A stretch of 64,000 bases of DNA from an uncultured virus (IMG/VR IMGVR_UViG_3300006148_000272) (IMGVR_UViG_3300006148_000272), one strand, 5' to 3'. Counted from the stretch's first letter, positions 10,470-33,474 are shown. Numbers and translations are program-made. The notes: a model not told the origin generated them from the letters alone.

Positions 10470-10470
10470 A

Positions 10471-14901: not shown

Positions 14902-14906
14902 GGCGT

Positions 14907-15779
14907 TTAAAGGAGGTTTGTGGTGGAGGGTTCGGAGGCTGGGGCCGGTTCCGGCATCGGGGTCGGGTCTTGACGGTCTAACGGGTAGTCATCTATGCCG
15001 GGGTCATCTTTCGATACAATTTCGCCGTCAATGACAACGCCGTCGTCGATTTTGACGACACGCCCCGTTTCCGCGGCATGGGAGACTTCAATGGCATTTG
15101 CCACTTCCACACTTTTCGGCATGTATTTGAGAACTTGCAGCAGAACCACCTTGCGGGCGTACATTTCGCGGTTTTTGTAGGAGTAATGCTTTTCTCCGAC
15201 CTCGTTGTGTGCGTCTCTGTGGCGCCAGATGCGTTCCATGGGCCATGCCTCAATGACAGGGGTTTCCGCTCCGTTAACCCGGGCGCAGGCATAGGCCCAT
15301 GTCATTTTGTCCTCATCCCCGTAATTGATGCCGGGGATGTGGCGGAGGATAGGATAGGCTCCAAGCTCAAATTGGAACTGGTCGCCCTCGTAAACTACCC
15401 CCGTCCAGGCGGTAGTCCTGCCCGTGTTGTTGAGCAGTCCTACAAGGCCCTGCCAGCCGGGAACAAAGGTGCACTTACCTTTGTAGGGGATAAGATATCC
15501 CTGCCCGGCTACTCCCGGCTCAAGCCCAAGCTGGGAGGCAATGAGCAAGCTGGAAAAGATACTTACAGCGGAACACCGCTGCAAGGCTGGGTTTTGTGAA
15601 AAGCAAGTTACCGCGAGACGAATCATACGGTCCGGGTTGAGATGGGCCGGCAGAGCGGCGGCAATGGAGGTTTTTGACCTGGTTAAAAAGCCAGCAAGCT
15701 CTTTCGGGGTTGACAGGGTAAGGGCCTGTTGTCCTTGTCTGTCCTCGTATTTTGGTTTATAAGGTTTTGCGTTACTCAT
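14907..15779 (-). CDS. recT: RecT-family single-strand annealing protein
   Basis: ALPAHLNPDRMIR, QLGLEP, GYLIPY and VYEGDQF motifs; probable start 15779. Confidence 0.9.
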   Translation of the reverse strand: MSNAKPYKPKYEDRQGQQALTLSTPKELAGFLTRSKTSIAAALPAHLNPDRMIRLAVTCFSQNPALQRCSAVSIFSSLLIASQLGLEPGVAGQGYLIPYKGKCTFVPGWQGLVGLLNNTGRTTAWTGVVYEGDQFQFELGAYPILRHIPGINYGDEDKMTWAYACARVNGAETPVIEAWPMERIWRHRDAHNEVGEKHYSYKNREMYARKVVLLQVLKYMPKSVEVANAIEVSHAAETGRVVKIDDGVVIDGEIVSKDDPGIDDYPLDRQDPTPMPEPAPASEPSTTNLL

Positions 15780-15843
15780 AATCTTTCGACGGATTGTTGT
15801 AACAGGCAGGGGATCGGTGGCCGCCGCCCCCCTGCCAACTGAA

Positions 15844-16281
15844 TCATCCTTCGCATTCCTCGCACTCGCATCCAACGATTCCAAGCATGGCGGCAATGGG
15901 ATTCATCCTCTTTTTCATTTTCTCTTTTTGCTGTTGTTCAAGGAACAAACGAACACCTTCTCCCATAGTGTTTACATTGCAATCAAAGCATTCGTTTGCT
16001 TTGAGAAGATAGCCGAAAGCGCTCGTCCACCCGTAAACTTTGAAATTCATTCTCTCAGACTGAAAAACGGAGCTGGAGGATTCTAATATGTGCCGAGTTT
16101 TTCTTTCTTCCGGGACCTCCAAAAAGGCGGAAAAAATAGCGCGCCCATCGTAACGCTTAATCAAATCAACAAGGTTATCAAGCGCGGCGCTGATTTCTTC
16201 TTTTGTGGATGCAACAGTATCGCAGCAGCAGGCTTCGTCCGGCGTGCAGGACTGCGCATTCTTTTCTTCGGTATTGTCCAT
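15844..16281 (-). CDS. Hypothetical phage protein
   Basis: 145 aa with Cys-rich termini. Confidence 0.6.
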   Translation of the reverse strand: MDNTEEKNAQSCTPDEACCCDTVASTKEEISAALDNLVDLIKRYDGRAIFSAFLEVPEERKTRHILESSSSVFQSERMNFKVYGWTSAFGYLLKANECFDCNVNTMGEGVRLFLEQQQKEKMKKRMNPIAAMLGIVGCECEECEG

Positions 16282-18477: not shown

Positions 18478-19239
18478 ATGACGACAACAAAAGAAGACGT
18501 AAAAAAATGGCTCAAGGTTATTGGTAGAGACAGAGAATGGCTCGCTAACCAATGTGGAGTTTCCAAGCGTCAGGTAGATAATTGGCTTTCGTCATCCATC
18601 AATATTCCCGCAAAGGCTATCCTTGTTATTCAGCGTCTTATGAACGGAGAAGCCGAATCCTCTCCCCGCATCGTCATCGACTTCACAGATGAAGAATGGG
18701 ACATTATCTGTGAGGCCGCTAAAGCCCACAAAGAAACCTTCCTGGAATTCGTCAATACCGCTATTCAAAATGCCGCCAAAGAAAAAGAGGCAGCCCGCAA
18801 GAAGTTTACCCCGGTAGAAACATTCACAGCCCCTCCCTTGGAGGCTCAGGGACGAATCATCGGCAACATTGCCGCCGGCAACCTGGCGGATGGAGACACC
18901 ATCCCGCAGGACATCTGGTTATACCGCGAACTGGAAAAAGGGGAATACCTGCTACGCGTCAACGGTCACTCTATGGAACCCTCCATCCCGGACGGCTCCG
19001 TGGTCATCATGAAAAAATACACCATCCCTCCCATCCCCAAGTTAGGAACCATTGTTCAATACCACGATGAACGAGGGGTGACGCTCAAAAAACTGGTTCG
19101 CAGGAAAAACCCGGAAACCGGAAAAATGGAATACGTATTACATCCACTCAATCCCGACTTCGGAGACATCGAACCCATGGACGGCGGTAAAATCTCCGGC
19201 ATCTATGTGGAAACGCTGGAACGCTGGAAGAAAGCTTGA
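18478..19239 (+). CDS. cI: CI-like repressor (HTH plus S24 autopeptidase)
   Basis: N-terminal HTH; IAAG cleavage-site motif; RVNGHSMEP (Ser) and VTLKKL (Lys). Confidence 0.9.
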   Translation: MTTTKEDVKKWLKVIGRDREWLANQCGVSKRQVDNWLSSSINIPAKAILVIQRLMNGEAESSPRIVIDFTDEEWDIICEAAKAHKETFLEFVNTAIQNAAKEKEAARKKFTPVETFTAPPLEAQGRIIGNIAAGNLADGDTIPQDIWLYRELEKGEYLLRVNGHSMEPSIPDGSVVIMKKYTIPPIPKLGTIVQYHDERGVTLKKLVRRKNPETGKMEYVLHPLNPDFGDIEPMDGGKISGIYVETLERWKKA

Positions 19240-19375: not shown

Positions 19376-19406
19376 AGCCCTTGGCCTCCGGGTCAGGGGC
19401 TTTTTT
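19376..19406. terminator. Second hairpin/terminator
   Basis: AGCCCCT...AGGGGCT followed by a T run. Confidence 0.65.
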
Positions 19407-19419
19407 GTTAAATAAGTTT

Positions 19420-20265
19420 CTACCTAATGAGATCAAAATTATCTAGGTAATAGGTTGCGTCTTCTTGTTTATCTCGGTTATAGATAAACAATCCTCTATT
19501 GTCTTGCTTGACCTTGATTGTCATTCCGGCGTCTGATGTGCTAATATATCCTCCGTGTTGCATTCTGTTAATATCCCCATTTTGCAAAATGAGAAAACGA
19601 TTAGTCATATGCCCATCGCATGAATAGCGGAACACAATCACATAAAATATATTAGCGGTAGAGCTGTTGATAAAATTATTCGGTTTAATGAAAACAGAAA
19701 GCTTGTTTTCTTTGAAAAAAGAAGTTTTAACCTGAATAAAGAAAAATTTGTCTCCTTTTGACGCTGTAATATCAACTCCTTCATCAGCAGACATAATGCT
19801 GGCATTATAGCCACGGAATAATAATTCACTCACTACAGCAAATTCACCACCTTTACCGCAAAAGATCTTGTCGCAGGAAGTATTGGAAAAGACAAGAGGG
19901 AGTTGTACTTGCTTATCTCCTCCGGGGTTTGGTTTCTTTTTACGGTCAGGTTCTGTTCTGATGACTTGAGTACCTTTTGGCTCCGGCTTGATCTTATAAA
20001 GCCCCTTTCTGGATCTCTTCGTCTTTGGATTGATAACCTTTGCATAAACCGGTGTCTTGCTTTTGACATTGGCTGCCAAAAAAGAATTAACCTTCTTCTT
20101 CATGTCCTCAACGGATGCCCCTTGAAATTCAGCGATATGCTGAACAATATGCTCCGCTATATCGTTTACGTGGGCTTCTTTCTTACCTAATGCCTTGAAA
20201 GAAATTGAAACAGCTTCTTTAATGTCCATATTCTCCCTTATATGTATCGGTTCTTTCCAAGTCAA
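19420..20265 (-). CDS. Winged-HTH plus PD-(D/E)xK nuclease-fold protein (low-GC moron)
   Basis: GKGGEFAVVSELLFRGY...GVDI...IQVKTS motif; AT-rich; may start at MDIKEAV (20229). Confidence 0.72.
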   Translation of the reverse strand: MTWKEPIHIRENMDIKEAVSISFKALGKKEAHVNDIAEHIVQHIAEFQGASVEDMKKKVNSFLAANVKSKTPVYAKVINPKTKRSRKGLYKIKPEPKGTQVIRTEPDRKKKPNPGGDKQVQLPLVFSNTSCDKIFCGKGGEFAVVSELLFRGYNASIMSADEGVDITASKGDKFFFIQVKTSFFKENKLSVFIKPNNFINSSTANIFYVIVFRYSCDGHMTNRFLILQNGDINRMQHGGYISTSDAGMTIKVKQDNRGLFIYNRDKQEDATYYLDNFDLIR

Positions 20266-20322
20266 TAAATTCCTTTCAGAAAGTTTCGTGGTGCTTTTTA
20301 AGAATTTAGCTCTACTATTTCC

Positions 20323-21204
20323 CTACTTCGGAATCTTGAGTTGTATCTGCTTCTTGAAAAAGCTCTTAGCAAAAACTTCGGCTCCATTACTATTCCAGTC
20401 TTCTGCGTTGATCGCGTTCATATTCTTTTCTACCTCCACAACGCATGCATTCCTCTCCTGAAAATCCTTCCAAATCTGATCTGCCGTAACAACATCTGTT
20501 CCCCACAAATTGTTGGCGTTCTTGTAAATCTGGCGGCCTACATCTCTATCTCCGTCACCGATGGTCTCCATCAGGCGATTCCCAAGCATATAAGCCCGGT
20601 CATGTTCGCTAGCCAGATCAAGGAGGGAAACAGCATCTTCGCCCCAACGTACGCGGAATCTCTCTTTCGCCCCTTCATCTCCGGTAGCAAACAGCACAAG
20701 ATCCATCAAGACCATCTCCTTGGTATTCGATCCTTTCCTTGCTCTGTAACATTCCATCTTCTCTTCCTGCTTTGCTCTCGCCTGCTCCTGTTGCATTCGC
20801 TCATGGGTGGCCACCTTCTCCAGCCTTTCATTCTCTCTATATTTGACAACAGCAAAAGCGGCGGAAGCAATTACCAGAAGCACAAACAGGACTTTAACCG
20901 GACCCTTCACCTTCTTCCAGATAATGGACCATGGCGCCATAATGGACAAAAAAAGAACAATGGTTCCGGCATTCACCCACATCCAGACCTCTTTCTCCAA
21001 ATGCACCCGGAAAATGGGATTGTAAAGCAGGGCAATAGCGGCGGCTGACACGCTTCCAAAACAAACTCCCTTCTTCTGTTCCTGTGCAAATACAAAGACA
21101 GCATAAGCACAGACAGCTAAACGCAGGAACATATAATACCCGTAAGGCATCGGCAACAGCGCCACCCCCAGAAGAACGCAAACAGCAATCAGCAAGCCTT
21201 TCAT
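20323..21204 (-). CDS. Multi-pass membrane protein (DUF6804-like N-terminus) fused to a copy of the ejection-protein N-terminal segment
   Basis: LLPMPYGYYMFLRL...LLYNPIF; about 5 TMs; block identical in protein to part of the 3275-aa protein; probable start 21204. Confidence 0.8.
   Translation of the reverse strand: MKGLLIAVCVLLGVALLPMPYGYYMFLRLAVCAYAVFVFAQEQKKGVCFGSVSAAAIALLYNPIFRVHLEKEVWMWVNAGTIVLFLSIMAPWSIIWKKVKGPVKVLFVLLVIASAAFAVVKYRENERLEKVATHERMQQEQARAKQEEKMECYRARKGSNTKEMVLMDLVLFATGDEGAKERFRVRWGEDAVSLLDLASEHDRAYMLGNRLMETIGDGDRDVGRQIYKNANNLWGTDVVTADQIWKDFQERNACVVEVEKNMNAINAEDWNSNGAEVFAKSFFKKQIQLKIPK
20459..20623. repeat. 165-bp direct repeat, copy A
   Basis: 163/165 identical to 30492-30656. 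Confidence 0.95.
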
Positions 21205-21259
21205 GAGTCCACACCATAATGGCGCACAAAATGAAACACAAGCTTGCAATATTTTGGAA

Positions 21260-24200
21260 TCACTCCGCCAGCTTAAACCCAGGCTTGGACAAATTCGCCA
21301 CCCCAGCCACGGACAAGAGCCAGGACGCCACGGAATCAGCCGCCTTGCTGCGGCTCCCGGCGCCCGCTCCGGCCACGTAAGCGGCCGCCTTGGCATCCAG
21401 CAGAATCAATTCCGCCCAATCGGCAAACGTCATCTCCTTCTCCCCGGTGACGGCTTTCCACGTATTTTTGGCCGCCCGGTAAATCGCGGAATAATCAATC
21501 ACTCCGGACGCGGTGCCTGCGTAAATACGCTGTCCAGTCGCCTGCTTGTAGCCAAACTCCACCGCCGCACCCAGCATCGGCACCCCGCCAATCATGGCAA
21601 CAGGAGCCCCCAGCATGGCGCCGAACCATCCGCCGTTCTTCTCCCACTCGTCCTCGTCATCCAGCAGGGCGTGCCACAGGGCAATCACCGTCTGTTCGGC
21701 AACGGACATCATTCCATATAAAGCAAGAGCCTGCCCCCAATTCCCGGAGCTCACATGAGAAACGATCATCCCCACCTTATTCAACACCTCGGAACTCATA
21801 AAACAGGCCATCTTCGCAAACAGGCCCGTGGAAGCCCCCAGCATGCTCTTCTGGCTCTGCGTCAGCGGCTGGGCCACCAGCTCCAGCGCCCGGGTCACGC
21901 TCTGCATGCACAGGGCGTGCATCTCATCATCCGTCATCGGGACGCCGGTCCTTTTTCCTGCCTCTTCCAGCTCGGCCCACTTCGCGTTATACAGGGCGGC
22001 CATGGACACGGCATTGCTCCACACGTCCATCTTCTCAATAGCCCTCATGCCGGCCATGGAAAACCTGATCGCTCCGGTGTAATTCTGATCGGAAGCATAC
22101 CCCATCAGCTGGCTCACCAGCTCCGCCTGAGCGTCATTGGTCCTCGCCCGGAAAGCCTCCGTCTTCATCACCTCAAACACCCCCATGCGTCCGGTCATGG
22201 ACATCGTCTGCCCCAGGTGCAGCAGGAAACTCCCCATGCCAACCTCCCCGGCAAACATCCCGTGCATCAGGCCGCTGGTCTGCTTGAGCATCGTCAGCAC
22301 GTTCCAGGCCAGCAGGGCCACCGCCTTGGCGCTCTGGAAGCGGCTTGTCGCCTGGGCTCCGGCCAGCAGGGCGCCCCCCTCCATCACTCCGGCCCCGTCG
22401 ATCACATCCAGCCAGTGCCGCAGCGAATCAATCCCGTGGCGCCCCATGTGCTCCTTCAGGGACGCTGCCGCCTCCTTGTCCGCCAGAATGCCGCGCCAGC
22501 GGGCAGTAATATCCGCCGTGCAAATATAATTCTCCACCTCGGCGCTCGCCGCCTGGAACACGGCCTCGCAATCCATATTCCAGGCCAGGTGCAAATTGTG
22601 CTTCCGCCTGGGAATCAGCATCCCGTACTTCGCCCCGCCGGCCACGGCATTCGTCTGTTCCCCGAAAGACGCCTTCGTATCAAGCTTGTGGTCCGCCCGG
22701 AACACGGCCCGGAAATAATTCTCCACCGCGGGGAAGGGAACCCCCTCACGCTCCTCATACACACGGGCCAGCAGCTTTCCCTGCCGGTTCATCAGCTCCC
22801 GCAGGCCGTAGCCGAACGCCAGCCCTTCGGCGCCCACAAACTCGCGCAGGCGGGCAACCTCCGCTTCTCCAATGCCTTCATTCCGCATCGTCTCCACGTA
22901 CTCGGCCTGCTCGTAAAGCAAAATGGCATACATCGCCTGGGCGCGGGAAACCTTCAACGTCTCGCCCTTCCTGCCCGGGCGCACCACTTCCTCCTTCGCC
23001 GTAATATTCTTCCTCCTTCTGGCCCGTCCGTCTCCGGCCTTCACCAATTCATCCAGCTCGGCAAGCTGCCGGCGCATCTCCGGAATAAGCGCTTCCGGCA
23101 CGGACGCCTTATCGTCGGAAAGCCCCCGGTCATTGTACTCCTTCCTGATTGCCTTGCGTCGTTCCTCCCTCTCCTCAAAAGACAACCCCACCCACTCGCG
23201 GGCCTCGGCGATCCTCACGGTGCGCTCCACCTTCACCAGCGGATTCAGCACTACGCCGGAATCCCCTGTCTTCTTGAAATCGGAAAGAACCCTTGCCACA
23301 TCTTTGGTGCGCTGAACGCCAAAACACCGCTTAACCAGGGCCGTCACCTCCCGGTCCCGGGCGTGCTTCATATTCCTCAACGCCACATTCGCCTCGGCAA
23401 TCGCAGTAACCTCGGCATGCGCCAGACCGCGCAGGGCGGGAATCTTCTTCCATCCATTCAACAGCTGGGAATAAGACTGCAAACCGTACTTCAGGTACTT
23501 GGCCGCCTTCGTTCTCGTAGACGCCTTCGCATCCTCTTCCGCGTCACGTCCTCCCTGGGGAGTGGCCTGCCCAAGCCCTTCCACAATCTTCTCGGCCTTG
23601 AACTTCGTCCGGCGCCTCTCCTCGTCCAACCGGGTGGACCAGGCCGTCCGTCCCGTCGTGATAAACAGGGCAAGGGCGCGCGCGCAGGCGCGCGTCTGCT
23701 CCAGTCCCATCCCGGCCAGATATCCGAACGTGTGCCAATCCTTCAATTCCAGCTCGGCCGCACCCCGTTCCTCTTCGGTGGACTGGTTGCTGGAAAGCAC
23801 GCCCTCCAGCTCCAGCATTCGCTTCTCCTTCGCCTCCTGGTCCGTATTCATCATGGCGACTATCCCGTGCAAATGCCTGTAATCCTCCGCGCTCAACTTG
23901 CCCTTGTTAAACTTCCCGCTGGCCTTCTTCGTCGGCTGCACGGCCTTGATGCGGGCAACCATCTCCGCCCGCATCTGGTCGACGGCATATCGGTCTGCCT
24001 GTTCCAGCGTGCGGGCCAGCAGCTTGTCAATCACGGCATCCATGCGCTCGCTGGTATCGTCCATCAGCGTCTCCTTCTTCAGCTCATCGGAAAGCCATGC
24101 CTGACCGTCCTCCAGACGGGTGGCAAGATTCTCGGCAGCTCTCATGTAAGGGTAAAGGCCAAACCTGTACCCCTCCGGCAGCGTCTTGTAAATGGAAGCC

Positions 24201-27200
24201 ACCACGGCCATGACCCTTCCGAACGCCTCCGCGCCGTCTCCCTGCTTCACATCGTTGGCCGCGCAAACCCGGCGCCATGTCTCCAACGCTTTTGCCGTCT
24301 GGCTGCGCAGCACCTCCAAACGGTTCTTCTGCGCCTCCCGCTCCAGCGTCACCCAGACACTTTCTCTCGTGGCAAGAGAGAAACTCGCCGTCGGATCCTC
24401 ATAATCCGCCCACGCTCCCCCGGTGGACTCGTCCGCAAACGCCGTAATCTTAATATCGTTGCCGTCAAAAATCACGTAATTATACGTCTGCTTCTCCTCC
24501 GCCTTCCAGCGGGAAAAACCGTCTGCGTACCTGATGCCCCTCACTCCATGCCTTAACAGAAACTCGCTCGCCTCTCTGGGGCTTCCCAAGGCATCCTCCA
24601 ACGAGCGGTAAATCTTGCCCCCCATCCAATACCCATTTTCCGGATCCTTGTCGTTGAACAAAGAATACGCTTCTTCCTTGCCCTCATCCAGAAGCCAATC
24701 TCCTATTCTGGATGTTGTAGATGAGCCGTACCCTTTATCCCAAAACAGCAGCTCCCCTCCTTCCATGAAGTCCAAATAATCCTCCACATTCAGCTCCACG
24801 CGGTAATTGGAAGGCATGCCCGTCCTGACCTCTATCTCGTCCAGATGATCAAGCAGAGAAAGTAGAAAGCCTTCCAGCTGGACCATTTTCTCCCGCTCCT
24901 GGGGATACTCCTCCGCGTGTTTCCTGTTGATTTCAATCTCCTCCATCACCTCTCTGGCGATGTCTGAAACAGTCATGCTTCCTTTGGAGGCATCAACCAA
25001 ATCGCCAAGAACAGACCAGGCGATATCTGACGCGTCCTCCTTGGCCTCCGGCAGGGCATCCTTCGGCAAAAAACTATTTACCAGGGATCGTTGCATCACT
25101 TCTATAACGCCAGTCTCCACCTCCCGGAACTTCCATGTCGTCTTATCCTGCGCGAACTGGTTCATATAACTCCGGTTCACCTCCGGATTTTCCGCAAAAT
25201 AAAGTCCCCAGCCATACGCCTGCGCTCCTTCCCCCTTGCCCATGAACGCCGTATCAAACTTGCGAAAACTGTGAGGGGAAGCATGCAGGGCAGTAATGGA
25301 GAACGTCACCCCCGGTTCCGTAATCACAGCGTTGCCCGCCTCAAAATGGCCGTCCCGGAACAAGCCCTGTTCCTGTGCCGAAACAATGGAAAACGTAATG
25401 TCCGGATTCTTCGGATCAAACGTCCCCCGGTTGTTCGTGGAGGACTTGATCTGATTCGGCTCAAAGGCAATGTACTCCGTCCATTTACCCAGTACAGCAA
25501 TGAGTCCATCATGTCCTCTTTCTTGAGCACTATCGGCTATCTGGGCCGCTCCTGTCGCATACGGCCGGAATATTCCAAACCTGTCATCTTCATGAAAATT
25601 CCCATCCCAGATATTTAAATAATCGCCTATCTCTTCGGCGGACTTGTAATCATTAAAAATAAAAGGATTCCTGAAATTCAGAAACAGAGCCAGCTTCTTG
25701 TTCCCGTACGGAGTATTCTCCATATTGGTAAAATAAAATCCTCTACCCCATATACCATAATCAGTAGCAGATCCAATCTTGGCCTTGTCAAACACCGTGA
25801 AATCACCGTATGTCCCATGATACACCACCCTCGGCTCCCCGTTCTCGTCCACCACCTTGGAAGCATTCTGCGGATCCTTCTCCCAATCGCCAAACCAATT
25901 CTTAAACGCCGCCGTGCGCACGGCAAGCCACTGGTCTTCCGTCAGATTCGTTTCCTTCCCGTTCGGGGCCTTCATGAACGTGCCCGCAGCCACAGCTTCC
26001 TTCTTGATTGCCTCTTTTTCCAGAGATAGGGAAAACGTCGCCGGAACAATAGCCCCGTCGTCAAACCGGCATTCCACTTCATTCACGTTGACAACATGCG
26101 CCCCTTGTGGTAAGGAAAAACCATCTCCCCCGCCAGCGGATTGGGACGGCAGAGCGGCCTTGCTTGCCGATCCTGGACCTAGGCGCGCGGTGCCGCTATT
26201 CGCGTTTGCAGGTTGTCGCTCTGCAAGGGGGAGCTTCTTCCCCAGCGGCTTCTTGCCCTGCCGCACTGGATAAGCCGAGACAATGGAATAAAACCCGTCC
26301 TTCCGGTCCAATTGCAGCAGCATCCATGAAGAAGGCTGCCTTCCCTTAACCAGCAGCTCACGCCCGGGCGCCACCTCGTAAAGCTCGCTCACATTCGCCA
26401 GAATGGAACTGATATAGCGTTCCGGGGAACGGTCCTTCCAGAAGGAAAACCCGCGGGAAGCCAGGATATGGGTCAGTCCATAGCCGCGATGCTCCCCGAC
26501 ATCGGAACCCACCAGCAGCCGCACCGGCATGGCTGGCTGCCTCTTGCGGCGCGGAATCACAAACCAGTCAGGACTTCCGTCTTCCCGGGTGACGAACGTC
26601 TCCGGAGCCAGGACAGTTCCGGAACTATCCATGGCAACCACGGAAAACGTCGCCCCGGAAACGGGCACACGCTCGAACGGATTCACTTCACTCGTGCCGT
26701 CCCAGGCAAGGGCGCGGTCATGAAGGTGCAGCGCCGGGTCATGGGACTGCCATGCCCCCTTGGCTCTTTCCAAATCATGAATGGCCGCATTCAAATCTGC
26801 GTCCGTCTCCAGGCGGATGCCCATCCTGCCCGCCAAATCCTTCCGCCGGCTGATGCCTCTGGACTTCTTCAGAAGGGACAGGCGTTCGGCAATCAGGGAA
26901 ATCCCCCGGGCCGCAAAGCGGGCCACCTTCTCGCAATCCTCCTGCCAGGACGTATCGTTGCCGAACAAATCAAACGCCTCTCCCTCCCGGGACTTCTCCG
27001 CAGCCACCCGGTCCGCCTCCTTCACATAGGCCGCCACGTAATCCCACGGCTTCCCCTTCTCGCGCAGCTGCAGGGCAAGCATCTGTCCCGCCTCCGTTGA
27101 AGACAGGCGGCATACCTTCCACGCCTCGTTATCCGTAATCACCCCGTTCTTCAGGCGGGTAAACACCTCATCCCCGGCCAGGGTGGCAATATCCCAGCCC

Positions 27201-30200
27201 ATCACATTGGCGGAACCGGGGCGCAAATACCCCTGCGCCTCCATCTCGTCCCGGCCCATATTGGAATTCCGGACAAAAAAAGCCACCTCCAGCGCGGACG
27301 CCTGACCGTCCAGCATATTCTGCCCGACGTCGTGCATCTTCGCCCAAGTGGCGTCATGCGCATCATCTTCTTCATACACGTAAGCCGGAATAAACTCCAC
27401 CCCGTCGCGCACGGCCAAATCAAACCGGTGGCGTCCGGTAATCACATGCAGGGCTCCATCCCTGCGCCGCCACACGGAAATGGGCTGGGCGTCTTCCCGG
27501 AACCATCCCTGAAGCTCGCGCCCCTTCACGGCTCCGCGTTCATTATGATCTCCCTGCTTGAACTGCTCCACATCCGGCGCCAGGGCCAGGGAATCCACCC
27601 GCACCTGGGCAAACACGCAATCCGGCGCCACCCGCACAAACGCGTGATCGCGGAACTCCGCGCCGGCCTCTTCATCGTGTTCGGCCTCTTCCCCCACCCC
27701 CTCCAGGGAGCCGCCGGCATCCTCCACCAGCGGAGCGGGGGATGCCGAATTCCCGGCAATGCCGGTCACGGGATCAGTCTCATCCTCCTCTTCCGCGGTC
27801 TCTTCCACATCCTCCGCGGCATCCATCCGCGCCATGGACTCTTCCAGTGCCTCCAGCTCGCCCAGCGTCATCGTGGCATCCCCCGGAGCCCTGCGGGAAG
27901 CAAGGTCCGCGTGCACCATCTCCACATCCAGTTTCTGCGCGGCATCCATCCGCGCCTGGCGGAAAACGCTCTCCGTACTCACGCCCACGGCCTGCAGGGC
28001 GTCTGCCAGGCCTCCGTGCTCTTCCATAAACTTCTTCCCCTCGTCCGTCGCGGCAAACTCGTTCCATTGCTCGCCCATGCGTATGATGCGGGCGGAATCC
28101 TCCAGATTCTTCAGGGCGAACTCCGCGGTGTCCTTCACCCACTGTGGCACGGGCAGGCTCTCAATATCCGCCAGGGAGGAAGACAGGGACAGGTTGGAAA
28201 AACTTTCCACCACGTCCCTGGCATCATGCGCCGGGCCCTCATACGTCCCCAGACTCACGCCGTACCTTCCCAACACGGCGTCCGCCGCCTGCAAATGCTC
28301 CCACAAATCCTGCCAATCCTTCCCGGTCAGGTTCATGTAATGAACCAGGGCGGACTCCTGCACATCCTCCATCACGTTGGCCGTCGTGGCATGGCCTCCT
28401 GCGTAAAGCAGCAGGGAACTCCCAGGATCGGTCGCCATCGTAAACCGGTGGGCGAAGCTGGCCGCCGCCGTGCCGTTCCTGATCTCCTCGGATCTCCCCC
28501 TCGTAATCTCTCCGGAACGCACTGCATGATCAAGACGCCTCTCAAAAGCCGCCGCCAAATCGGCAATGGAACCAAGCTGAACCTTCCCCATCACTTCGGC
28601 ATCCGTCCTGCTTCTGGCTTCCTGGACGGACACGCCCTCTTCCCGGACAATCGCGTCAATCCTCGCCTGGGCTCGCGCGGCCACATCCATCAACCCCGGG
28701 ACGGTCATCCCTCCGGTTTCGGCGGCCGCCTTCCGGTACTCCGCAGGCGCTTCCTCGGACAACATATCCAGCGTCTCAATAAAATCCATCTTCCCGGCTT
28801 CCGAAATCGCGGCATTCCCCAGCACGGCATCCTGCATCACGCGGACGCCATTCAAATAAGCCCCCTGCAGCACTACCTGAACCAGGGCGTCCGTCTGCTC
28901 CTCGTTCATCTCCACGCTCCTGTCTTCCTCCATCTTCACGCCGTTCACTACAGCGCCCTCCCGCAGGCTCACCTCGTACCTGTCCGTTCCTTCCAGCTTG
29001 CGGATACGGCCAATGTTGGCCTTCTCCAGCACCTTGTCCAGAGCGCCGGACATCTGGTACAGCCGGGCCTCCTGCCGGTCCGCCAGCTCGGCGCCGGCCT
29101 TCCGCGCCCGTTCGGCGGCTCCTTCTGGATCCTTCAATACATCAGTCTCGAAATACTTCTGGGCCAGCGCAGCCTTGTGCTCCGCCGTGGAAAAAGACGC
29201 CATCTCTTCGGCATGCTTCTTCGTATATCCGGCCAGCTGGGCCCGCTGCGCATCCGTCACGAACGCCGCCACTTCCTGCTTCATCCTCGGAGCGTGGCCG
29301 GCAGCCATGGCCGCCACAAACAACGCGCATCCGCCGGACTGCTCCACATCCCCCATCGCCTGAAGCACGGGGCCCACCACCTCGAAATCCTTCGGCTTCA
29401 CCTCCATTCCCGTCATCCCGGACAACTTCCGGGCCGTCCACTCGAACAACTCCCCGGCCAGAGGTTCCGCCGCCATCTCTTCCACGTAGGCAAACGCCGG
29501 GGTGGAAAGCATCTTGCCGGTTCTCGTCCCGGCAAAAAACGTGCGCCCCGGCACCTTCGCGGCCAGTCTCGCCAGGGCGCCGGTTCCCGTCCTGGTCATC
29601 AGCTTGTTGATGGCCCCCATGCGCCCGAACACGGAAAACACCCCAAACCCCTTTTCCTCCACCGTATTCCGCAGCCCGTTGATCGTCACGTCCACCAGGG
29701 AATCCCCGTTGCGGGAGGCGGCATTCCCGGCGTGCCCCATATCCCCGGCCAGCGCCAGGGCCCAGCCGCCGGGAGCCATGTAGGAAAGGCTCTGCCCGGT
29801 GATATTCCCGGCTCCGTTAATCGCCTTGACGTACCAGGACGCATCAGGGCTCGTGCCCCGCATCCGCTGTCCGAACTCGTGCATCACATCCTGCATCGTA
29901 TTCAGCGCTTCGCGTCTTTGCTCGTAGCGGTCGAAGAGCTGCCTTTGTCCGTCAAACGTATCCTTCACCCCCTGCAGGGGAGCAATATTATTGGAATACC
30001 ACTCTTCCATTCCGCTCATGCCGGGAATGCCCCTCACCGCCTGAACCGCCTTCACGCCCAGGCTCTCCGCGCCGCGCGCCGTGTCGGCAAAACTTCTATA
30101 CAAATTGCGCCAGAAAGCAGCGGAATCCGTCTGGCTCTCCTGAACCTTCCGGTCAATCGCGGTCATCAGCAACATCAACGCCTGCTGGTCCAGCACCTCA

Positions 30201-31087
30201 TTCCCGTTGACATTCACTGTCAGCAGATCGGCCATGTCCAGCGCGTCGGAGCGCCAGACATCCTCAAACCCGCGCCTCTCGGCAAAAGCATACGCCCGCC
30301 GCGCCCTCATGATGGAATCGGCAGCCTTCTGCGGACTCTCGGCATACTTCAGCAAATCGGCAGGACACGCGTCCCAGCTGCCTTCCTTCCCGGCTACGCA
30401 ATCCACTATCCGGCGGGAAATCTCCTCCTGTTCAGTCTGAACCCTCTTCAGATTTTCATTATAGGCGTCCAGCGTCTTCTGATGCCTCCCTTGAAAATCC
30501 TTCCAAATCTGGTCTGCCGTAACAACATCTGTTCCCCACAAATTGTTGGCGTTCTTGTAAATCTGGCGGCCTACATCTCTATCTCCGTCACCGATGGTCT
30601 CCATCAGGCGATTCCCAAGCATATAAGCTCGGTCATGTTCGCTAGCCAGATCAAGGCGGTTCAGAGCATCTTGGCCCCAGAGTTCCGCAGCTTTCTTTCT
30701 GCCCTCTCCATCCATGGCCCCGGCCCGCAGCACATCCATCAGCCGGGCCTGCTTATCCTTTCTGCGCCTCTCTTCTCGCTCTGCTGCGCCGTACATCATC
30801 ATAGCCCCCTGGTCATGCAGGGATTCAGGATCCGTCAGCTGCGGACGGAACTCCGTTTCGGAAGGATCTTCCGGAGCAGGAAAAGGGGAAGGAGTGGTTT
30901 CCATCACGTCGCTTCCATTCAAAAGATTAATGTCGGCTGCTGCTTGCTCCTGTCCTGTTCCCGGTTCCATCTCCGGCAGGTGAAATCCGGCGGCAGCCTC
31001 GCCCTCCGGCAGCGGCAGGGAGGAAAAAGAAAGATCCAGAGGCATATCCGCAGCGTCGGCCCCGTCAAAGGAAAAATTGTCGTTCAT
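21260..31087 (-). CDS. Giant (3275 aa) internal virion/ejection protein with polyvalent effector domains
   Basis: Last gene of the ejection cluster; contains ParB-like (VITGRHR), PBECR-like (GYGLTHI) and two ADP-ribosyltransferase-like (VYHGT...GFYFT; LHAS...YGWGLYF) modules. Confidence 0.8.
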   Translation of the reverse strand: MNDNFSFDGADAADMPLDLSFSSLPLPEGEAAAGFHLPEMEPGTGQEQAAADINLLNGSDVMETTPSPFPAPEDPSETEFRPQLTDPESLHDQGAMMMYGAAEREERRRKDKQARLMDVLRAGAMDGEGRKKAAELWGQDALNRLDLASEHDRAYMLGNRLMETIGDGDRDVGRQIYKNANNLWGTDVVTADQIWKDFQGRHQKTLDAYNENLKRVQTEQEEISRRIVDCVAGKEGSWDACPADLLKYAESPQKAADSIMRARRAYAFAERRGFEDVWRSDALDMADLLTVNVNGNEVLDQQALMLLMTAIDRKVQESQTDSAAFWRNLYRSFADTARGAESLGVKAVQAVRGIPGMSGMEEWYSNNIAPLQGVKDTFDGQRQLFDRYEQRREALNTMQDVMHEFGQRMRGTSPDASWYVKAINGAGNITGQSLSYMAPGGWALALAGDMGHAGNAASRNGDSLVDVTINGLRNTVEEKGFGVFSVFGRMGAINKLMTRTGTGALARLAAKVPGRTFFAGTRTGKMLSTPAFAYVEEMAAEPLAGELFEWTARKLSGMTGMEVKPKDFEVVGPVLQAMGDVEQSGGCALFVAAMAAGHAPRMKQEVAAFVTDAQRAQLAGYTKKHAEEMASFSTAEHKAALAQKYFETDVLKDPEGAAERARKAGAELADRQEARLYQMSGALDKVLEKANIGRIRKLEGTDRYEVSLREGAVVNGVKMEEDRSVEMNEEQTDALVQVVLQGAYLNGVRVMQDAVLGNAAISEAGKMDFIETLDMLSEEAPAEYRKAAAETGGMTVPGLMDVAARAQARIDAIVREEGVSVQEARSRTDAEVMGKVQLGSIADLAAAFERRLDHAVRSGEITRGRSEEIRNGTAAASFAHRFTMATDPGSSLLLYAGGHATTANVMEDVQESALVHYMNLTGKDWQDLWEHLQAADAVLGRYGVSLGTYEGPAHDARDVVESFSNLSLSSSLADIESLPVPQWVKDTAEFALKNLEDSARIIRMGEQWNEFAATDEGKKFMEEHGGLADALQAVGVSTESVFRQARMDAAQKLDVEMVHADLASRRAPGDATMTLGELEALEESMARMDAAEDVEETAEEEDETDPVTGIAGNSASPAPLVEDAGGSLEGVGEEAEHDEEAGAEFRDHAFVRVAPDCVFAQVRVDSLALAPDVEQFKQGDHNERGAVKGRELQGWFREDAQPISVWRRRDGALHVITGRHRFDLAVRDGVEFIPAYVYEEDDAHDATWAKMHDVGQNMLDGQASALEVAFFVRNSNMGRDEMEAQGYLRPGSANVMGWDIATLAGDEVFTRLKNGVITDNEAWKVCRLSSTEAGQMLALQLREKGKPWDYVAAYVKEADRVAAEKSREGEAFDLFGNDTSWQEDCEKVARFAARGISLIAERLSLLKKSRGISRRKDLAGRMGIRLETDADLNAAIHDLERAKGAWQSHDPALHLHDRALAWDGTSEVNPFERVPVSGATFSVVAMDSSGTVLAPETFVTREDGSPDWFVIPRRKRQPAMPVRLLVGSDVGEHRGYGLTHILASRGFSFWKDRSPERYISSILANVSELYEVAPGRELLVKGRQPSSWMLLQLDRKDGFYSIVSAYPVRQGKKPLGKKLPLAERQPANANSGTARLGPGSASKAALPSQSAGGGDGFSLPQGAHVVNVNEVECRFDDGAIVPATFSLSLEKEAIKKEAVAAGTFMKAPNGKETNLTEDQWLAVRTAAFKNWFGDWEKDPQNASKVVDENGEPRVVYHGTYGDFTVFDKAKIGSATDYGIWGRGFYFTNMENTPYGNKKLALFLNFRNPFIFNDYKSAEEIGDYLNIWDGNFHEDDRFGIFRPYATGAAQIADSAQERGHDGLIAVLGKWTEYIAFEPNQIKSSTNNRGTFDPKNPDITFSIVSAQEQGLFRDGHFEAGNAVITEPGVTFSITALHASPHSFRKFDTAFMGKGEGAQAYGWGLYFAENPEVNRSYMNQFAQDKTTWKFREVETGVIEVMQRSLVNSFLPKDALPEAKEDASDIAWSVLGDLVDASKGSMTVSDIAREVMEEIEINRKHAEEYPQEREKMVQLEGFLLSLLDHLDEIEVRTGMPSNYRVELNVEDYLDFMEGGELLFWDKGYGSSTTSRIGDWLLDEGKEEAYSLFNDKDPENGYWMGGKIYRSLEDALGSPREASEFLLRHGVRGIRYADGFSRWKAEEKQTYNYVIFDGNDIKITAFADESTGGAWADYEDPTASFSLATRESVWVTLEREAQKNRLEVLRSQTAKALETWRRVCAANDVKQGDGAEAFGRVMAVVASIYKTLPEGYRFGLYPYMRAAENLATRLEDGQAWLSDELKKETLMDDTSERMDAVIDKLLARTLEQADRYAVDQMRAEMVARIKAVQPTKKASGKFNKGKLSAEDYRHLHGIVAMMNTDQEAKEKRMLELEGVLSSNQSTEEERGAAELELKDWHTFGYLAGMGLEQTRACARALALFITTGRTAWSTRLDEERRRTKFKAEKIVEGLGQATPQGGRDAEEDAKASTRTKAAKYLKYGLQSYSQLLNGWKKIPALRGLAHAEVTAIAEANVALRNMKHARDREVTALVKRCFGVQRTKDVARVLSDFKKTGDSGVVLNPLVKVERTVRIAEAREWVGLSFEEREERRKAIRKEYNDRGLSDDKASVPEALIPEMRRQLAELDELVKAGDGRARRRKNITAKEEVVRPGRKGETLKVSRAQAMYAILLYEQAEYVETMRNEGIGEAEVARLREFVGAEGLAFGYGLRELMNRQGKLLARVYEEREGVPFPAVENYFRAVFRADHKLDTKASFGEQTNAVAGGAKYGMLIPRRKHNLHLAWNMDCEAVFQAASAEVENYICTADITARWRGILADKEAAASLKEHMGRHGIDSLRHWLDVIDGAGVMEGGALLAGAQATSRFQSAKAVALLAWNVLTMLKQTSGLMHGMFAGEVGMGSFLLHLGQTMSMTGRMGVFEVMKTEAFRARTNDAQAELVSQLMGYASDQNYTGAIRFSMAGMRAIEKMDVWSNAVSMAALYNAKWAELEEAGKRTGVPMTDDEMHALCMQSVTRALELVAQPLTQSQKSMLGASTGLFAKMACFMSSEVLNKVGMIVSHVSSGNWGQALALYGMMSVAEQTVIALWHALLDDEDEWEKNGGWFGAMLGAPVAMIGGVPMLGAAVEFGYKQATGQRIYAGTASGVIDYSAIYRAAKNTWKAVTGEKEMTFADWAELILLDAKAAAYVAGAGAGSRSKAADSVASWLLSVAGVANLSKPGFKLAE
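30492..30656. repeat. 165-bp direct repeat, copy B
   Basis: 163/165 identical to 20459-20623. Confidence 0.95.
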
Positions 31088-31116
31088 AGTGAAAAATATT
31101 TATAATATGTTCAATG

Positions 31117-33474
31117 TTAAAATGATTTGTAATACTTGCTTACGCCGTTGACCCAATGCTTATTCAATCCGCGCGGATCATTCCCGGCTCCTGCCGGAGC
31201 GTACTTCCCTCCAATGGCGGCAATCGTCGTCAACCCCTGGTCCAGATAATGCTTCCTCAACAGGCGGGCGGCGTAATTAATGCTCTCTTCCACGGAGGAA
31301 AAAGTGCGCGGTCCCCCTCCATTCGGGCTGATGCCCATGGCGTTATTCTTGCGCAGGAAAGCGGCGCTCGTTCCCTTGCCGGTCTCGTGCATGGCAATAG
31401 CCATCAACAGCTTCGGATCCACGCCATACTTCCTTCCCGCATCATAAAAAGCCTGGCTGTACTGTCCCAGCCCCCCCAGCTTGGCGGCAGGCACCCTGGA
31501 CTCTCCGGCATCCTGCTCCCAATCCTGGCTTCCCGGATATTCTCTCTTGAAAAACTCCCTCATTTCCGGGCTGGCAGGGGAAATCGTCACATTCGTATCC
31601 ATCTTGGAAGAAAACGTCATCCGCAGCTTGCTGGCGCCGGACAGGGTAAGCTGGGGGGAACTCCCCCTGGTGTAGCCCACCACGGGAAGGGGCTTCCCGC
31701 GGCGGGAAGAAGAGGAAGAAGGAACCAGGGCGGCCAGTCCGGAAACGTCGTCGCCAAACCGCTGCCTCATGCTCTCCGGCAGAAGAATGCCGGCGGGCGC
31801 GTTCGTATTCACGGTATCTACGGAAACCATGGCAGGGAACGTAAACGGCTTGCGCAACATATCCTTCCGGCGCAGCGTCTGCTTCTCCCCTTCACTCAAT
31901 AATTTGGGGCCAGCATTAAACCGTTCACTATCCCTATCTCTCCATTTCTCGCTTGCAGTCTGCTGGTATTCATCCATCAATCTCCCACGACTCGGAATAA
32001 CTAAATCATTGCGACCTGTTACTTTTCTTAAAATAGTCTGAAGCATATCCTCCTGCAAAACATAGGAAGGCTCCTTCCCGTTCCCCTGCACCTCTCCATC
32101 AAACCAGGCCTCAAAATCATCACGAACGGCAATCTCGGTCTTGGCGGCAAGATTCTTTTGCAGGTTCTCAATCTTCTCCTTCTTGAACCTCTTGATCCAT
32201 GTATCTTCACTGTCTTTGGGTGTGTCGGACCCTTTGGAGGAATCAGCGTAGAGTTGCCAGGCATTCTTCGCCTCGGCATCAAGAGTGCCAATGACGTTAT
32301 TATAATCCGCCTGACGGTACAACGGAGCCCCATCCATCTCCTTCATGCGCTCGGAAACATTCAACATCTTGTACTTTTCCTTGCGCTTGGCCCACTTATC
32401 CATGCGGTTCAAAACATCCTTCTGGAACTCGGCTGACTTCGCGTAACGCTTGCACAGAAGGATCACATTTTCCTTCTTGCTCGCCAAATCCGGCCCTTCT
32501 TCTCCAGCCCTCACCATATCCGCAACCCGGTAAATGAAAGAATCAATCTGCGGAGCGCAGGCGCTGTAATCCCCGTCGCGCTCATAAACCGCATGAAACC
32601 CCAATTCTTCCTGATAGACGGGACCGGACAGCAAAGCATTCGTCACGGCCTGCCTGTCGTTCTTTGACTTAGGACGGGAAGCCGTCTGCTCGACTACCTC
32701 CGTAAGCCTGTTGTCGTCCTGACGCCGCAAAGAACGCATCATCTCATCCTGTTCGGAGGCGGAAAAATACCCGTCCAGCTCCCCGCGGTTAATCATCTCG
32801 GCGGCAAGATCCGGGTTAGTCGCGGCCAGGTTCTCAAAATGATGGCGGGAAGCCTTCTTCCTCCCTCTCAATAAACGCAGCTCACCTTCGTCACGGGAAA
32901 TCGTGCCGGAAGCTACGGCGTCATCAACAGACCTCTCGTAACCGCCCCAATCCTGCTTCTCCTCGGCCAGCTTCAAACTCGTATCGAAAGCCTGTCTGGC
33001 AACGCCCAGCTGATGTTTGGCAGCCAGCCCCCAATAACGTTCCGGCAGGCTTGACCTCACGGAAGCCCTGACAGCCTCCGCCTTCATGGCGCTCTCCGGG
33101 TGGAAAAAACTGCCACCCAGCGCGTCAATCTTCTGGCCGAACTCGTAAGCCAAATCTTTCAGCTTCCCCTGCCGGATGGAACCGTCCTTCTCAAAAACGC
33201 TCTCCTTCGTGCCCGGCGCGAAAGCCAGCATCCTGGAAAACTTCGCGTCGGACTCGTCCCGGATGCGTCGCAGCTCCACCTCCTGCCGCTGCATCTCCCC
33301 GAAATCGGAAATCCTGGCAAACGCCTCCGCGCTCCCCTGAACCGCCTCTTCGGCCTTCTGGACGGACGCGCCCAGCACCTGGCCCTGATCGCCATTGGCG
33401 GCCCGCGCCGCGACACCGGGATCAGCCTTGGCCGTCTGCAGGGACGGCCCGCCGTATAAAGAAAACTCGCTCAT
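31117..33474 (-). CDS. Internal virion protein with C-terminal lysozyme-like peptidoglycan hydrolase
   Basis: YGVDPKLLMAIAMHETG...NNAMGI...KYAP motif; long helical N-terminus. Confidence 0.8.
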   Translation of the reverse strand: MSEFSLYGGPSLQTAKADPGVAARAANGDQGQVLGASVQKAEEAVQGSAEAFARISDFGEMQRQEVELRRIRDESDAKFSRMLAFAPGTKESVFEKDGSIRQGKLKDLAYEFGQKIDALGGSFFHPESAMKAEAVRASVRSSLPERYWGLAAKHQLGVARQAFDTSLKLAEEKQDWGGYERSVDDAVASGTISRDEGELRLLRGRKKASRHHFENLAATNPDLAAEMINRGELDGYFSASEQDEMMRSLRRQDDNRLTEVVEQTASRPKSKNDRQAVTNALLSGPVYQEELGFHAVYERDGDYSACAPQIDSFIYRVADMVRAGEEGPDLASKKENVILLCKRYAKSAEFQKDVLNRMDKWAKRKEKYKMLNVSERMKEMDGAPLYRQADYNNVIGTLDAEAKNAWQLYADSSKGSDTPKDSEDTWIKRFKKEKIENLQKNLAAKTEIAVRDDFEAWFDGEVQGNGKEPSYVLQEDMLQTILRKVTGRNDLVIPSRGRLMDEYQQTASEKWRDRDSERFNAGPKLLSEGEKQTLRRKDMLRKPFTFPAMVSVDTVNTNAPAGILLPESMRQRFGDDVSGLAALVPSSSSSRRGKPLPVVGYTRGSSPQLTLSGASKLRMTFSSKMDTNVTISPASPEMREFFKREYPGSQDWEQDAGESRVPAAKLGGLGQYSQAFYDAGRKYGVDPKLLMAIAMHETGKGTSAAFLRKNNAMGISPNGGGPRTFSSVEESINYAARLLRKHYLDQGLTTIAAIGGKYAPAGAGNDPRGLNKHWVNGVSKYYKSF

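Follow-up and report, generated by a model that had tools for sequence, protein, structure and literature searches.

A predicted membrane-anchored copy of a giant phage protein's N-domain as a candidate exclusion decoy in an Akkermansia prophage

The window, a 64,000-nt stretch of DNA from an uncultured virus, carries a temperate podovirus-like prophage with T7-type structural genes, whose host is a gut bacterium of the Akkermansia lineage. A small predicted membrane protein of this element ends in a domain which, as judged by alignment, is a paralogue of residues ~110–215 of the giant protein encoded next to it, and the core of this shared domain (the block) undergoes concerted evolution by gene conversion between the two genes. 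We propose that the most likely function of the small gene is homotypic superinfection exclusion by mimicry, a reading to which we assign a probability of about 0.5.

Table 1. Features of the small gene, the giant gene and their surroundings in the window.
Feature	Coordinates	Strand	Basis
Phage recombination module: YqaJ exonuclease, RecE-like protein, RecT	13280..15896	-	PF09588, PF03837, phrog_7655
cI-like repressor (HTH + Peptidase_S24), convergent with late operon	18478..19239	+	domain matches
281-aa ORF downstream of small gene, variable accessory	19420..20265	-	weak phrog_5018 match only
Small gene, 293 aa: membrane anchor, stalk and giant N-domain copy	20323..21204	-	ORF call
C-terminal seven-helix domain, residues 155–293: giant N-domain paralogue and own 44-aa tail	20326..20742	-	domain-only model
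Homogenised block, copy in small gene	20459..20623	-	163/165 vs 30492–30656
Fifth TM helix (~101–121) leading into charged helical stalk (~122–154)	20743..20904	-	model, hydrophobicity
DUF6804 domain, residues 4–89, modelled four-helix membrane bundle	20938..21195	-	Pfam PF20619 and AlphaFold
Promoter-like string TTGTGT-17-TATGGT, 8 nt before ATG, putative and weak	21213..21241	-	read from sequence
Giant polyvalent protein, 3275 aa, predicted packaged and injected	21260..31087	-	ORF, ART-PolyVal
ART-PolyVal domain of giant, residues 1747–1890	25418..25849	-	E 4.2e-24
Giant N-domain, residues ~110–215	30443..30760	-	alignment to small protein
Homogenised block, copy in giant gene	30492..30656	-	allele comparison
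785-aa virion-block protein, C-terminal glucosaminidase domain	31117..33474	-	PF01832, PHROG

As the earlier note had reported, the two copies of the block are identical at 163 of 165 nucleotides, and because the encoded 55 aa are the same in the small-gene and giant ORFs, both changes are synonymous; read in codon register (20458–20622), the copies differ at 3/165. The direct repeat extends to 260 nt at 85%, and a search of window positions 1–42000 for direct repeats of 40 nt or more (seed 14) shows no second family. The weaker homology claimed for ~30 aa upstream of the core is likewise present, with a DNA identity of ~0.43–0.67 per 30-nt interval versus 0.93–1.00 in the core. In the alignments of both the window and G002, identity is 0.93–1.00 in the tract and 0.2–0.6 in its flanks, with sharp borders, and residues 164–266 of the small protein align to the giant N-domain. 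These diverged flanks around a near-identical tract, together with the allele comparison below, bear out the suggestion that the paralogy is old and that its core was homogenised recently.

Within every record that shows both copies (10/10), the small-gene and giant-gene blocks differ at 0–4 of 165 nt. Specifically, there are three differences in the window, G001, L003 and L069, four in L006 and L074, two in L005, one in G002 and on comparing L083 with L101, and none in L073. In contrast, lineages A and A'' are separated by 20–22 of 165 nt, both from small gene to small gene and from giant to giant, mostly by synonymous changes (16 of 20 in the block), and domain types A and B lie 53–64 of 165 nt apart. 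This pattern demonstrates that the block copies undergo concerted evolution by gene conversion. The tract is ~30 nt longer upstream in G002 and one codon longer downstream in L073, and since tract ends vary by lineage, the conversion events are independent. Additionally, near-identical gene backbones carry either a type A or a type B block, the block type varying on the same backbone between L008 and L075, between P0003 and both L008 and P0007, and between P0004 and the window. In particular, L008 and L075 show zero synonymous and one non-synonymous difference over codons 1–163, none in the tail and 14 in the block; P0003 carries an A block on an L008-type backbone, and P0004 has a window-like backbone (all but one N-terminal signature) in which 63 consecutive aa are the same as in the L039 giant.

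The expectation that the block follows the cognate giant allele holds directly for A, A'' and D (the last on another anchor) and indirectly for B. In L075, the giant body shares 99.2–99.7% identity with B2 giants and the small block lies 6/165 nt from the B2 allele, and P0010 is a deletion recombinant in which a type-B giant N-terminus is joined to a small-gene tail, a junction implying that both copies once resided in one genome. The repeats cause natural 10-kb deletions, and the giant gene is lost in L084, P0009 and P0010. The further claim that conversion keeps decoy and target matched stands as regards conversion but not as regards strict matching, given isolate run X1 and the type-B records. 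In X1, a window-type small gene adjoins a giant gene whose N-terminal region (~218 codons; 762 nt) is replaced by 571 other letters, so matching to the resident giant is not obligatory. Subtype tracking may also fail in L008, where the giant C-terminus is closest to B2-type giants and the small block is B1 (20/165 from B2), in a comparison for which the giants are mosaic and the L008 contig lacks the giant N-terminus.

The small protein contains five hydrophobic segments, including one at 98–123, in agreement with the ~5 TM helices described earlier, and from these it is predicted to be an inner-membrane protein. Its residues 4–89 match DUF6804 at profile positions 5–90, covering 86 of 91 (E 1.5e-19; 70.4 bits against a curated gathering cut-off of 27 bits), which places it in this family. 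AlphaFold models helices at 2–14, 21–43, 49–60 and 71–89, followed by one uninterrupted helix at 101–154, of which the last ~33 residues form the helical stalk; TM5 and the stalk are missing from the 95-aa and Cys-rich variants of the small gene. In the VIA structure comparison, the DUF6804 bundle matches generic four-helix bundles only (Z up to 9.9). The C-terminal domain modelled alone reaches a pLDDT of 90.1 and a pTM of 0.84, and no solved relative of it is found among 48,161 chains (best VIA Z 3.5), by Foldseek (zero matches at E≤0.001) or by a PDB profile search (best E 0.058). The small protein matches 0 families in PHROG and 0 in PADLOC, and thus shows no kinship there to a described exclusion or defence family, a point against the proposed exclusion reading. 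Full-length relatives occur in 6 viral loci at 86–100% identity, with more among 49 metagenome loci.

Applying the positive-inside rule by hand together with the hydrophobic segments, we obtain the periplasmic C-terminus that had been proposed for the small protein, and this prediction is consistent across three different anchors bearing the domain family. In all three, the loop preceding the last TM helix is strongly positive and the flank beyond it is neutral or acidic. TM5 is missing from the Cys-rich variant with its four CxxC motifs, as a cytoplasmic C-terminus of DUF6804 would predict. On the other hand, K-Y-R opens the stalk right after TM5, which weakens the periplasmic call.

The giant gene sits among virion genes, with those for the 785-aa glucosaminidase protein, the tail and the capsid on one side and the end of the late block on the other. 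The giant has the marks of the polyvalent class, being very large, set among virion genes and endowed with ART-PolyVal, the sole Pfam domain recognised in the window's giant; its relatives combine LPD3 with ART-PolyVal or carry MuF_C. According to the available text of Iyer et al. 2017 (PMC5512222), polyvalent proteins encoded among virion genes are predicted to be injected, and by analogy the giant is predicted to travel in the virion and to enter the cell along with the DNA. The neighbouring 785-aa protein matches PF01832 at residues 674–743 (E 4e-10) and PHROG endolysin and tail-lysozyme families, and is a candidate ejection or peptidoglycan-breaching protein. The giant N-domain is the first folded domain behind an acidic, Pro-rich leader, and the N-terminal ~200 aa form a swappable module of types A–E in giants that are otherwise ~96% identical beside the junction, an organisation that fits a specificity determinant under conflict.

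The same domain family, in types B, D and E, is borne by two further membrane anchors. P0012 joins a single-TM anchor to a type-B domain, and P0016 joins a different four-TM anchor to a domain that over 89 aa shares 82% identity with the L119-type giant N-domain. The small protein of L116 combines the P0016 anchor with a type-D domain; it shares identical runs of 27 and 16 aa with its own giant, and its DNA is 95% identical to that giant versus 80–86% to other type-D giants. On these comparisons, domain fusions arose independently on two other anchors.

We propose that exclusion by mimicry would operate as follows. In the lysogen, where we infer the small gene to be expressed, the DUF6804 four-helix anchor would lie in the inner membrane with both ends predicted inside, TM5 would carry the chain across the membrane, and the stalk would hold the domain at its tip, most likely in the periplasm. 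The domain itself is a paralogous copy of the giant's first folded domain, the core of which is repeatedly overwritten by conversion from the co-resident giant gene, so that it tends to the resident giant's allele. Thus tethered, it may occupy or capture an envelope partner needed by the N-domain of an incoming giant, possibly another ejection protein, a host envelope factor or the N-domain itself, and DNA entry would be blocked for phages with the same N-domain type. If true, the small protein is a self-updating decoy against related phages.

An unlikely alternative, albeit one with some substance, is that the protein is functional and its match to the giant incidental, the domain having a role independent of allele (for example, binding a host envelope component) and the near-identity reflecting mechanical gene conversion between homologous stretches 10 kb apart in a RecT phage. 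The recombination module is present (PF09588, E 8.3e-24; PF03837, E 1.2e-28; phrog_7655, E 1.9e-33), and we infer that the phage's own RecT module probably drives the block conversions; in a RecT-encoding phage, conversion between paralogues does not require selection. Conserved W-G and W-K-D-F codons fall at the tract ends, which may thus be set by homology alone, the X1 small gene persists without a matching giant, and the natural deletions between the repeats indicate that the copies recombine readily. However, identical direct repeats are costly, as the loss of the giant gene in three records illustrates, and the arrangement nevertheless recurs in several lineages, on three anchors and with four domain types; with such recurrence despite the cost, a benefit tied to the giant-like domain is otherwise hard to avoid. 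This alternative also overlaps with mimicry, since a domain that masked a host receptor would likewise be excluding phages by mimicry.

Somewhat more doubtful is the idea of a role for the small protein in the life cycle of its own phage, its giant-like domain pairing with the resident giant or a partner in lytic growth, for instance as a membrane dock for assembly or as a sensor of lysis timing in the manner of T4 lysis inhibition (RI/T), in which a periplasmic domain senses a superinfecting phage. A cis-acting partner would need to match the resident giant, and the small gene immediately follows the giant gene on the same strand; the 55 nt that separate the two hold no terminator-like site, so that the small gene could be just the last one of the late operon. 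The promoter attributed to it earlier is there as a string (TTGTGT-17-TATGGT-8-ATG, 21241–21213) but is a weak match, with a consensus score of 8/12 and no call in a sigma-70 scan; small-gene relatives mostly have different upstream sequence, with the last ~40 nt alone in common. Additionally, no holin or separate endolysin is recognised in the prophage, and the DUF6804 variant of only 95 aa is superficially holin-like in having several TM segments as well as a charged tail. Against a role in the phage's own cycle, the gene is accessory, as DUF6804 is absent from 10/10 type-B-giant viral records searched, 7 of them at least 90% complete, and the allele-7 giants (L021, L105) have no DUF6804 gene within 1.3 kb downstream. 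X1 retains the small gene although the giant N-terminal region is replaced, DUF6804 genes in 6 unrelated genomes are not beside lysis or phage genes, and a periplasmic domain would be unable to meet the giant during cytoplasmic packaging. A holin assignment for the small protein was rejected in view of the same ten records and six contexts.

Most improbable among the biological readings is a functionless chimeric by-product, in which a 5' fragment of the giant gene was fused by accident to a DUF6804 gene. The region that separates the late operon from the cI-like repressor, in which the small gene lies next to another variable gene, is a hot-spot of many alternative membrane-protein genes and indels, a setting in keeping with an accessory gene; the 281-aa ORF is missing in L084 and L018 and has no PADLOC match, and a terminator-like hairpin lies at 19376–19401. 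The C-terminal domain family is also very narrow, with 7 representatives at E≤0.001 among 1.84 billion. Neutrality is nevertheless contradicted by dN/dS, which is 0.07–0.16 for codons 1–163 (anchor and stalk; dS ~0.46–0.54) and 0.10–0.29 for the tail. Judged by these ratios, the small gene is under purifying selection and belongs to the functional accessory genes (morons). For the block of A versus A'', dN/dS is 0.04, and such strong purifying selection, with no fine-scale arms-race signature in this comparison, counts against exclusion by mimicry. Apart from P0011 (232 aa, 2 member sequences), which diverges within the block and ends early, the full-length copies found are intact; the extra TM helix and stalk are placed exactly where export of the domain would need them, and the independent fusions on two other anchors likewise argue against an accident.

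That the repeat is an assembly artefact, an outcome that the earlier note took as refuting, is scarcely credible: in run X20 a single contig of low depth links 30491 with 20459 via the repeat, so assemblers can cross over there, but 10 records, deposited separately and drawn from different samples, show both copies with their own unique flanks, alleles vary across lineages yet agree inside each genome, a read pair is longer than the 165-nt repeat, and the small-gene copy lies within a single isolate contig of 28 kb.

DUF6804 typically makes up a whole protein of ~100 aa, found in varied bacterial settings, whereas here it anchors an additional TM helix and a domain of phage origin; our literature search found no paper naming DUF6804 and no described precedent for a membrane-anchored giant-domain copy. 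T4 Imm and Sp, HK97 gp15, Ltp of TP-J34 and T5 Llp are small envelope proteins that stop later phage entry, and the proposed decoy resembles them as an envelope protein made by the resident or infecting phage; to our knowledge, none of them is paralogous to any virion protein of its own phage. In animals, Fv1, Fv4 and enJSRV env/gag are resident copies of viral structural domains that interfere with an incoming related virus. They share the principle with exclusion by mimicry as an analogy only, in another kingdom and by another mechanism, and we know of no concerted evolution of theirs against a co-resident intact virus.

The likeness to polyvalent proteins (PMC5512222) lies in the giant's ART-PolyVal, the LPD3 or MuF_C of its relatives and the virion-gene setting; a term search of the available text of Iyer et al. 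2017 found neither 'transmembrane' nor 'Akkermansia'. For P22 SieA, escape mutations in the ejection proteins gp16 and gp20, as given in the available part of Leavitt et al. 2024 (PMC10883804), point to the ejection conduit as the target, and the role that we propose for the small protein is the same, acting on the ejection conduit. That part of the paper describes SieA neither as a paralogue of an ejection protein nor as evolving in concert with its target, and it is by this description, together with the absence of a PHROG family match, that the small protein is set apart from SieA. Unlike SieA as described there, the small protein would display a copy of its presumed target's own N-domain.

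Family profile matches to its genes mark nucleotides 1 to about 41,900 of the window as a prophage, in which the small gene comes after the giant gene and is followed by a 281-aa ORF and, in convergent orientation, by the repressor gene. The 281-aa ORF is missing from two related loci, L084 and L018, and represents a second variable accessory gene at the site. The host genes UvrA and SecA come after the prophage; SecA shares 66% identity with its counterpart in an uncultured Akkermansia MAG, and the host guess of the earlier note, Akkermansia, is compatible with this. Past these host genes lies a second block of genes, including a gpA-type large terminase, that probably represents a further prophage or else a satellite-like element. 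The nearest record to the window is the provirus G001, and a megablast search of named phage genomes returned no match to 19400-31100. The giant carries an ART-PolyVal domain (E 4.2e-24) and is assigned by its sequence to the polyvalent proteins, which Iyer et al. (PMC5512222) predict to be injected along with DNA.

Features of the prophage and of the block beyond the host genes
Feature	Coordinates	Strand	Remarks
Integrase	1-1140		
T7-type portal	2205-3854		PF12236, E 4e-87
Small terminase subunit	8084-8575		
Dam-type methylase and RusA			within prophage
Recombination module: YqaJ exonuclease, RecE-like protein, RecT	13280-15896	-	
cI-like repressor	18478-19239	+	HTH and S24
281-aa soluble ORF	19420-20265	-	between small gene and repressor; weak phrog_5018 match only
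Small gene	20323-21204	-	begins 55 nt past the giant's stop codon
Giant 3275-aa ORF	21260-31087	-	end of late block
785-aa protein with C-terminal glucosaminidase domain	31117-33474	-	late block
Tail genes	between capsid gene and 785-aa protein gene	-	late block
Capsid gene	40755-41750	-	start of late block
Second block	54261-63687	+	past host UvrA and SecA
gpA-type large terminase	54914-56638		E 3.6e-53

The 165-nt segment that the earlier note had described as shared by the small gene and the giant gene is indeed present in both, its two copies differing at 2 positions, both synonymous, and alignment bears out the weaker homology upstream of this core (hereafter the block). The prophage contains no other direct repeat of 40 nt or more. 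Relatives were gathered from viral contigs (24 loci and 21 loci), metagenome contigs (49 loci) and protein databases, and 72 full-length blocks were extracted, in 19 DNA alleles. In each of the 10 records showing both copies, the small-gene copy departs from the giant copy at 0-4 of 165 nt. Between lineages the block has diverged: type A, the giant N-domain type of the window lineage, and type A'', that of the G002 lineage, differ at 20-22 nt in each gene (16 of the 20 differences being synonymous in the small gene), and 53-64 nt separate type A from type B. The blocks thus group with their genome rather than with their gene, silent sites included, which is a signature of gene conversion and indicates that the block is homogenised with the co-resident giant gene. 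Conversion tract ends vary among lineages. Block swaps on genes that otherwise match are also seen: L008 and L075 show 0 synonymous differences outside the block and 14 differences inside, the related protein P0004 matches the giant of L039 exactly over a run of 63 aa on a window-like backbone, and P0003 combines an L008-like backbone with an A block. Giant alleles are also found in phages without the small gene, and the small-gene block varies with its context, pointing to giant to small as the usual direction of conversion. For type B, the small gene and the cognate giant N-terminus lay on separate sequence pieces in all cases compared, and indirect evidence suggests that the block tracks its giant there as well. 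In particular, the giant body of L075 is 99.2-99.7% identical to giants with the B2 block allele, and its small-gene block is 6/165 from B2; additionally, the recombinant P0010 joins a type-B giant N-terminus to a small-gene tail, which implies that both copies were in one genome. The conversion may have a purely mechanical basis, given that RecT is encoded by the phage and tract ends fall at conserved codons, and the YqaJ exonuclease/RecE-like/RecT system could convert diverged paralogues. No fine-scale diversifying selection was seen in the block (dN/dS 0.04). The architecture, the fact that it recurs and the cost that the repeats impose lead us to argue that an exported, membrane-tethered copy of the giant N-domain is selected.

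Recombination between the direct repeats occurs naturally: L084 fuses window 32868-30482 to 20646-20316, so that the giant body and the DUF6804 part are missing from it, and P0009 and P0010 are deletion products of the same class; in all three (L084:1126-3759, P0009 and P0010) the giant N-terminus is joined via the block to the small-gene tail with the removal of about 10 kb. Such products are known for both type A and type B. In sequencing run X20, one contig at depth 3 joins window 30491 to 20459, placing the upstream part of the small gene before the block and the downstream part of the giant after it; this may be the reciprocal product of recombination (a circle or a duplication) or else a cross-over that the assembler made within the repeat. 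The isolate run X1 holds a 28-kb contig with a window-type small gene, in which the first 762 nt of the giant are replaced by 571 other letters, at the same breakpoint as in the type-C giants of L016 and L017. In L008, the giant C-terminus resembles B2 giants while the block is B1. The proposed decoy is thus not matched in every genome: the evolutionary claim of the earlier note, that gene conversion keeps decoy and target alike, is supported and widened, but strict matching does not hold in X1 and may fail in L008. The giant N-terminal ~200 aa is a swappable module of at least five types, A-E (window 30434-31087; L029, L009, L013, L116, L119). Giants of different N-types are ~96% identical immediately past the junction, the right-hand breakpoint of the module falls at a conserved W-(K/Q/D)-(D/R)-(F/W) motif, and a GD.D.D-like loop is kept in all types. 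A role of the small protein in the phage's own assembly fits X1 less well than exclusion does, because under exclusion a type-C phage would there shut out type-A phages.

In the small protein, DUF6804 covers residues 4-89. Its AlphaFold model (pLDDT 81.5) consists of a four-helix bundle, a long helix 101-154, which comprises the fifth TM segment and a charged stalk, and a seven-helix domain that is confidently modelled by itself (pLDDT 90.1, pTM 0.84). Comparison with PDB structures and sequence profiles found no solved structural relative of this domain: Foldseek against the PDB gave nothing at E<=0.001, the best VIA Z for the domain by itself was 3.5, and the best PDB sequence profile reached E 0.058. 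With the whole model, the VIA matches were all generic four-helix bundles covering residues 1-99. The structure Atlas gave no usable match, and PHROGs and PADLOC placed the small protein in 0 known phage or defence families. The domain family is very narrow: a set of 5.8 billion sequences yielded 9 clusters of similar length, and one of 1.84 billion yielded 7 representatives (E<=0.001).

Within this family the giant-like domain recurs on other anchors. P0012 carries a type-B domain on a single N-terminal TM helix. P0016 carries the domain on an unrelated four-TM anchor, with 82% identity over 89 aa to the L119-type giant N-domain, and L116 combines a P0016-type anchor with a type-D domain that shares 27- and 16-residue runs with L116's own giant; at the DNA level this domain is 95% identical to its own giant, compared with 80-86% to other type-D giants. 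The arrangement was thus found with three anchors and four domain types, every one shortly downstream of a giant gene, and a membrane-anchored copy of the giant domain appears, from these comparisons, to have arisen no fewer than three times, on anchors unrelated to one another. L116-L121 hold, at about 9989-11080, a second membrane-protein family downstream of giants, in which three TM helices are followed by an acidic linker and one further TM helix; its C-terminal ends vary between a giant-like domain, more TM helices and an unrelated soluble domain, and two (-) ORFs, one with a weak PLD-like match, separate its gene from the giant.

The charges of the membrane-flanking segments bear on the location of the domain. 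The window protein has positive loops after TM2 (QEQKKG) and TM4 (KKVKGPVK) and a charge-balanced flank after TM5; in P0012, M-K precedes the sole TM helix and an acidic stretch follows it, and in P0016 and L116 K/R clusters precede the last TM. A sister form (L009:10001-10690, L010-L012, L026, L085-L089) has DUF6804 without TM5 and a Cys-rich ~130-aa tail with four CxxC motifs, for which Pfam, PHROGs and PADLOC gave no match and its own giant contains no paralogue; this tail fits a cytoplasmic end of DUF6804. Loop charges and the sister-form tail together lead to the prediction that the giant-like domain is extracytoplasmic and carried by a stalk roughly 5 nm long.

At a dS of about 0.5, dN/dS is 0.07-0.16 for anchor and stalk and 0.10-0.29 for the tail. 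The small gene is absent in 10/10 viral records with type-B giants, 7 of which are at least 90% complete, and is absent with allele-7 giants as well; in relatives its site is occupied by other membrane-protein genes. These patterns mark it as a probably functional, accessory gene. A holin was rejected on the grounds of the absence in these 10 records and the occurrence of DUF6804 genes outside lysis cassettes in six unrelated genomes. The small-gene frame is open for 64 codons upstream, running into the giant's 3' end, and a frameshift fusion of the two genes was put aside because relatives carry a 660-770-nt spacer with a separate ORF between them. This spacer is present in most relatives (L007:9342-10000, L008:871-1642, L013, L014), whereas in the window the two genes lie 55 nt apart; the L007 spacer contains a 119-aa ORF without family match, and upstream of the small-gene ATG only the last ~40 nt, GGAG included, are common to spacer-bearing relatives.

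An exclusion mechanism, a receptor-masking variant included, is plausible for the small protein, with the odds about even. The fuller reading, to which we give a probability of roughly 0.35, is that of a self-updating decoy: the anchor would display in the periplasm a copy of the N-domain of the phage's own injected giant, the phage recombination system would rewrite this copy from the resident giant gene, and the lysogen would always exclude phages with entry machinery of the resident type. Such exclusion would in turn drive the wholesale N-domain swapping (A to E) among otherwise near-identical giants. If this is true, exclusion gains a readable specificity code, in which the small-gene block names the phage type kept out, so that the excluded type could be read from gut metagenome sequence alone. 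The first folded domain of the polyvalent protein would then be the part acting in the envelope during entry, providing a handle on how giant polyvalent proteins exit the virion. Additionally, the system would offer a clear microbial case in which a decoy and its target are maintained through gene conversion, at the measurable cost of deletions between repeats, and paralogous mimicry with concerted evolution would constitute a principle of superinfection exclusion that is general and has not been described before. Hosts of the Akkermansia lineage are an abundant gut group, in which prophage-determined phage resistance affects strain dynamics. Whatever the function, three anchors recurrently paired with four domain types form a regularity that is new and testable.

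A literature search for DUF6804 found no paper, and the literature searched on Akkermansia prophages and podoviruses, superinfection exclusion, and ejection proteins with gene conversion did not describe any system of this kind. In function, the nearest known parallel is P22 SieA, an inner-membrane prophage protein that stops injection, with escape mutations located in ejection proteins (PMC10883804). Distinct from P22 SieA, the excluder proposed here would mimic a domain that belongs to its target.
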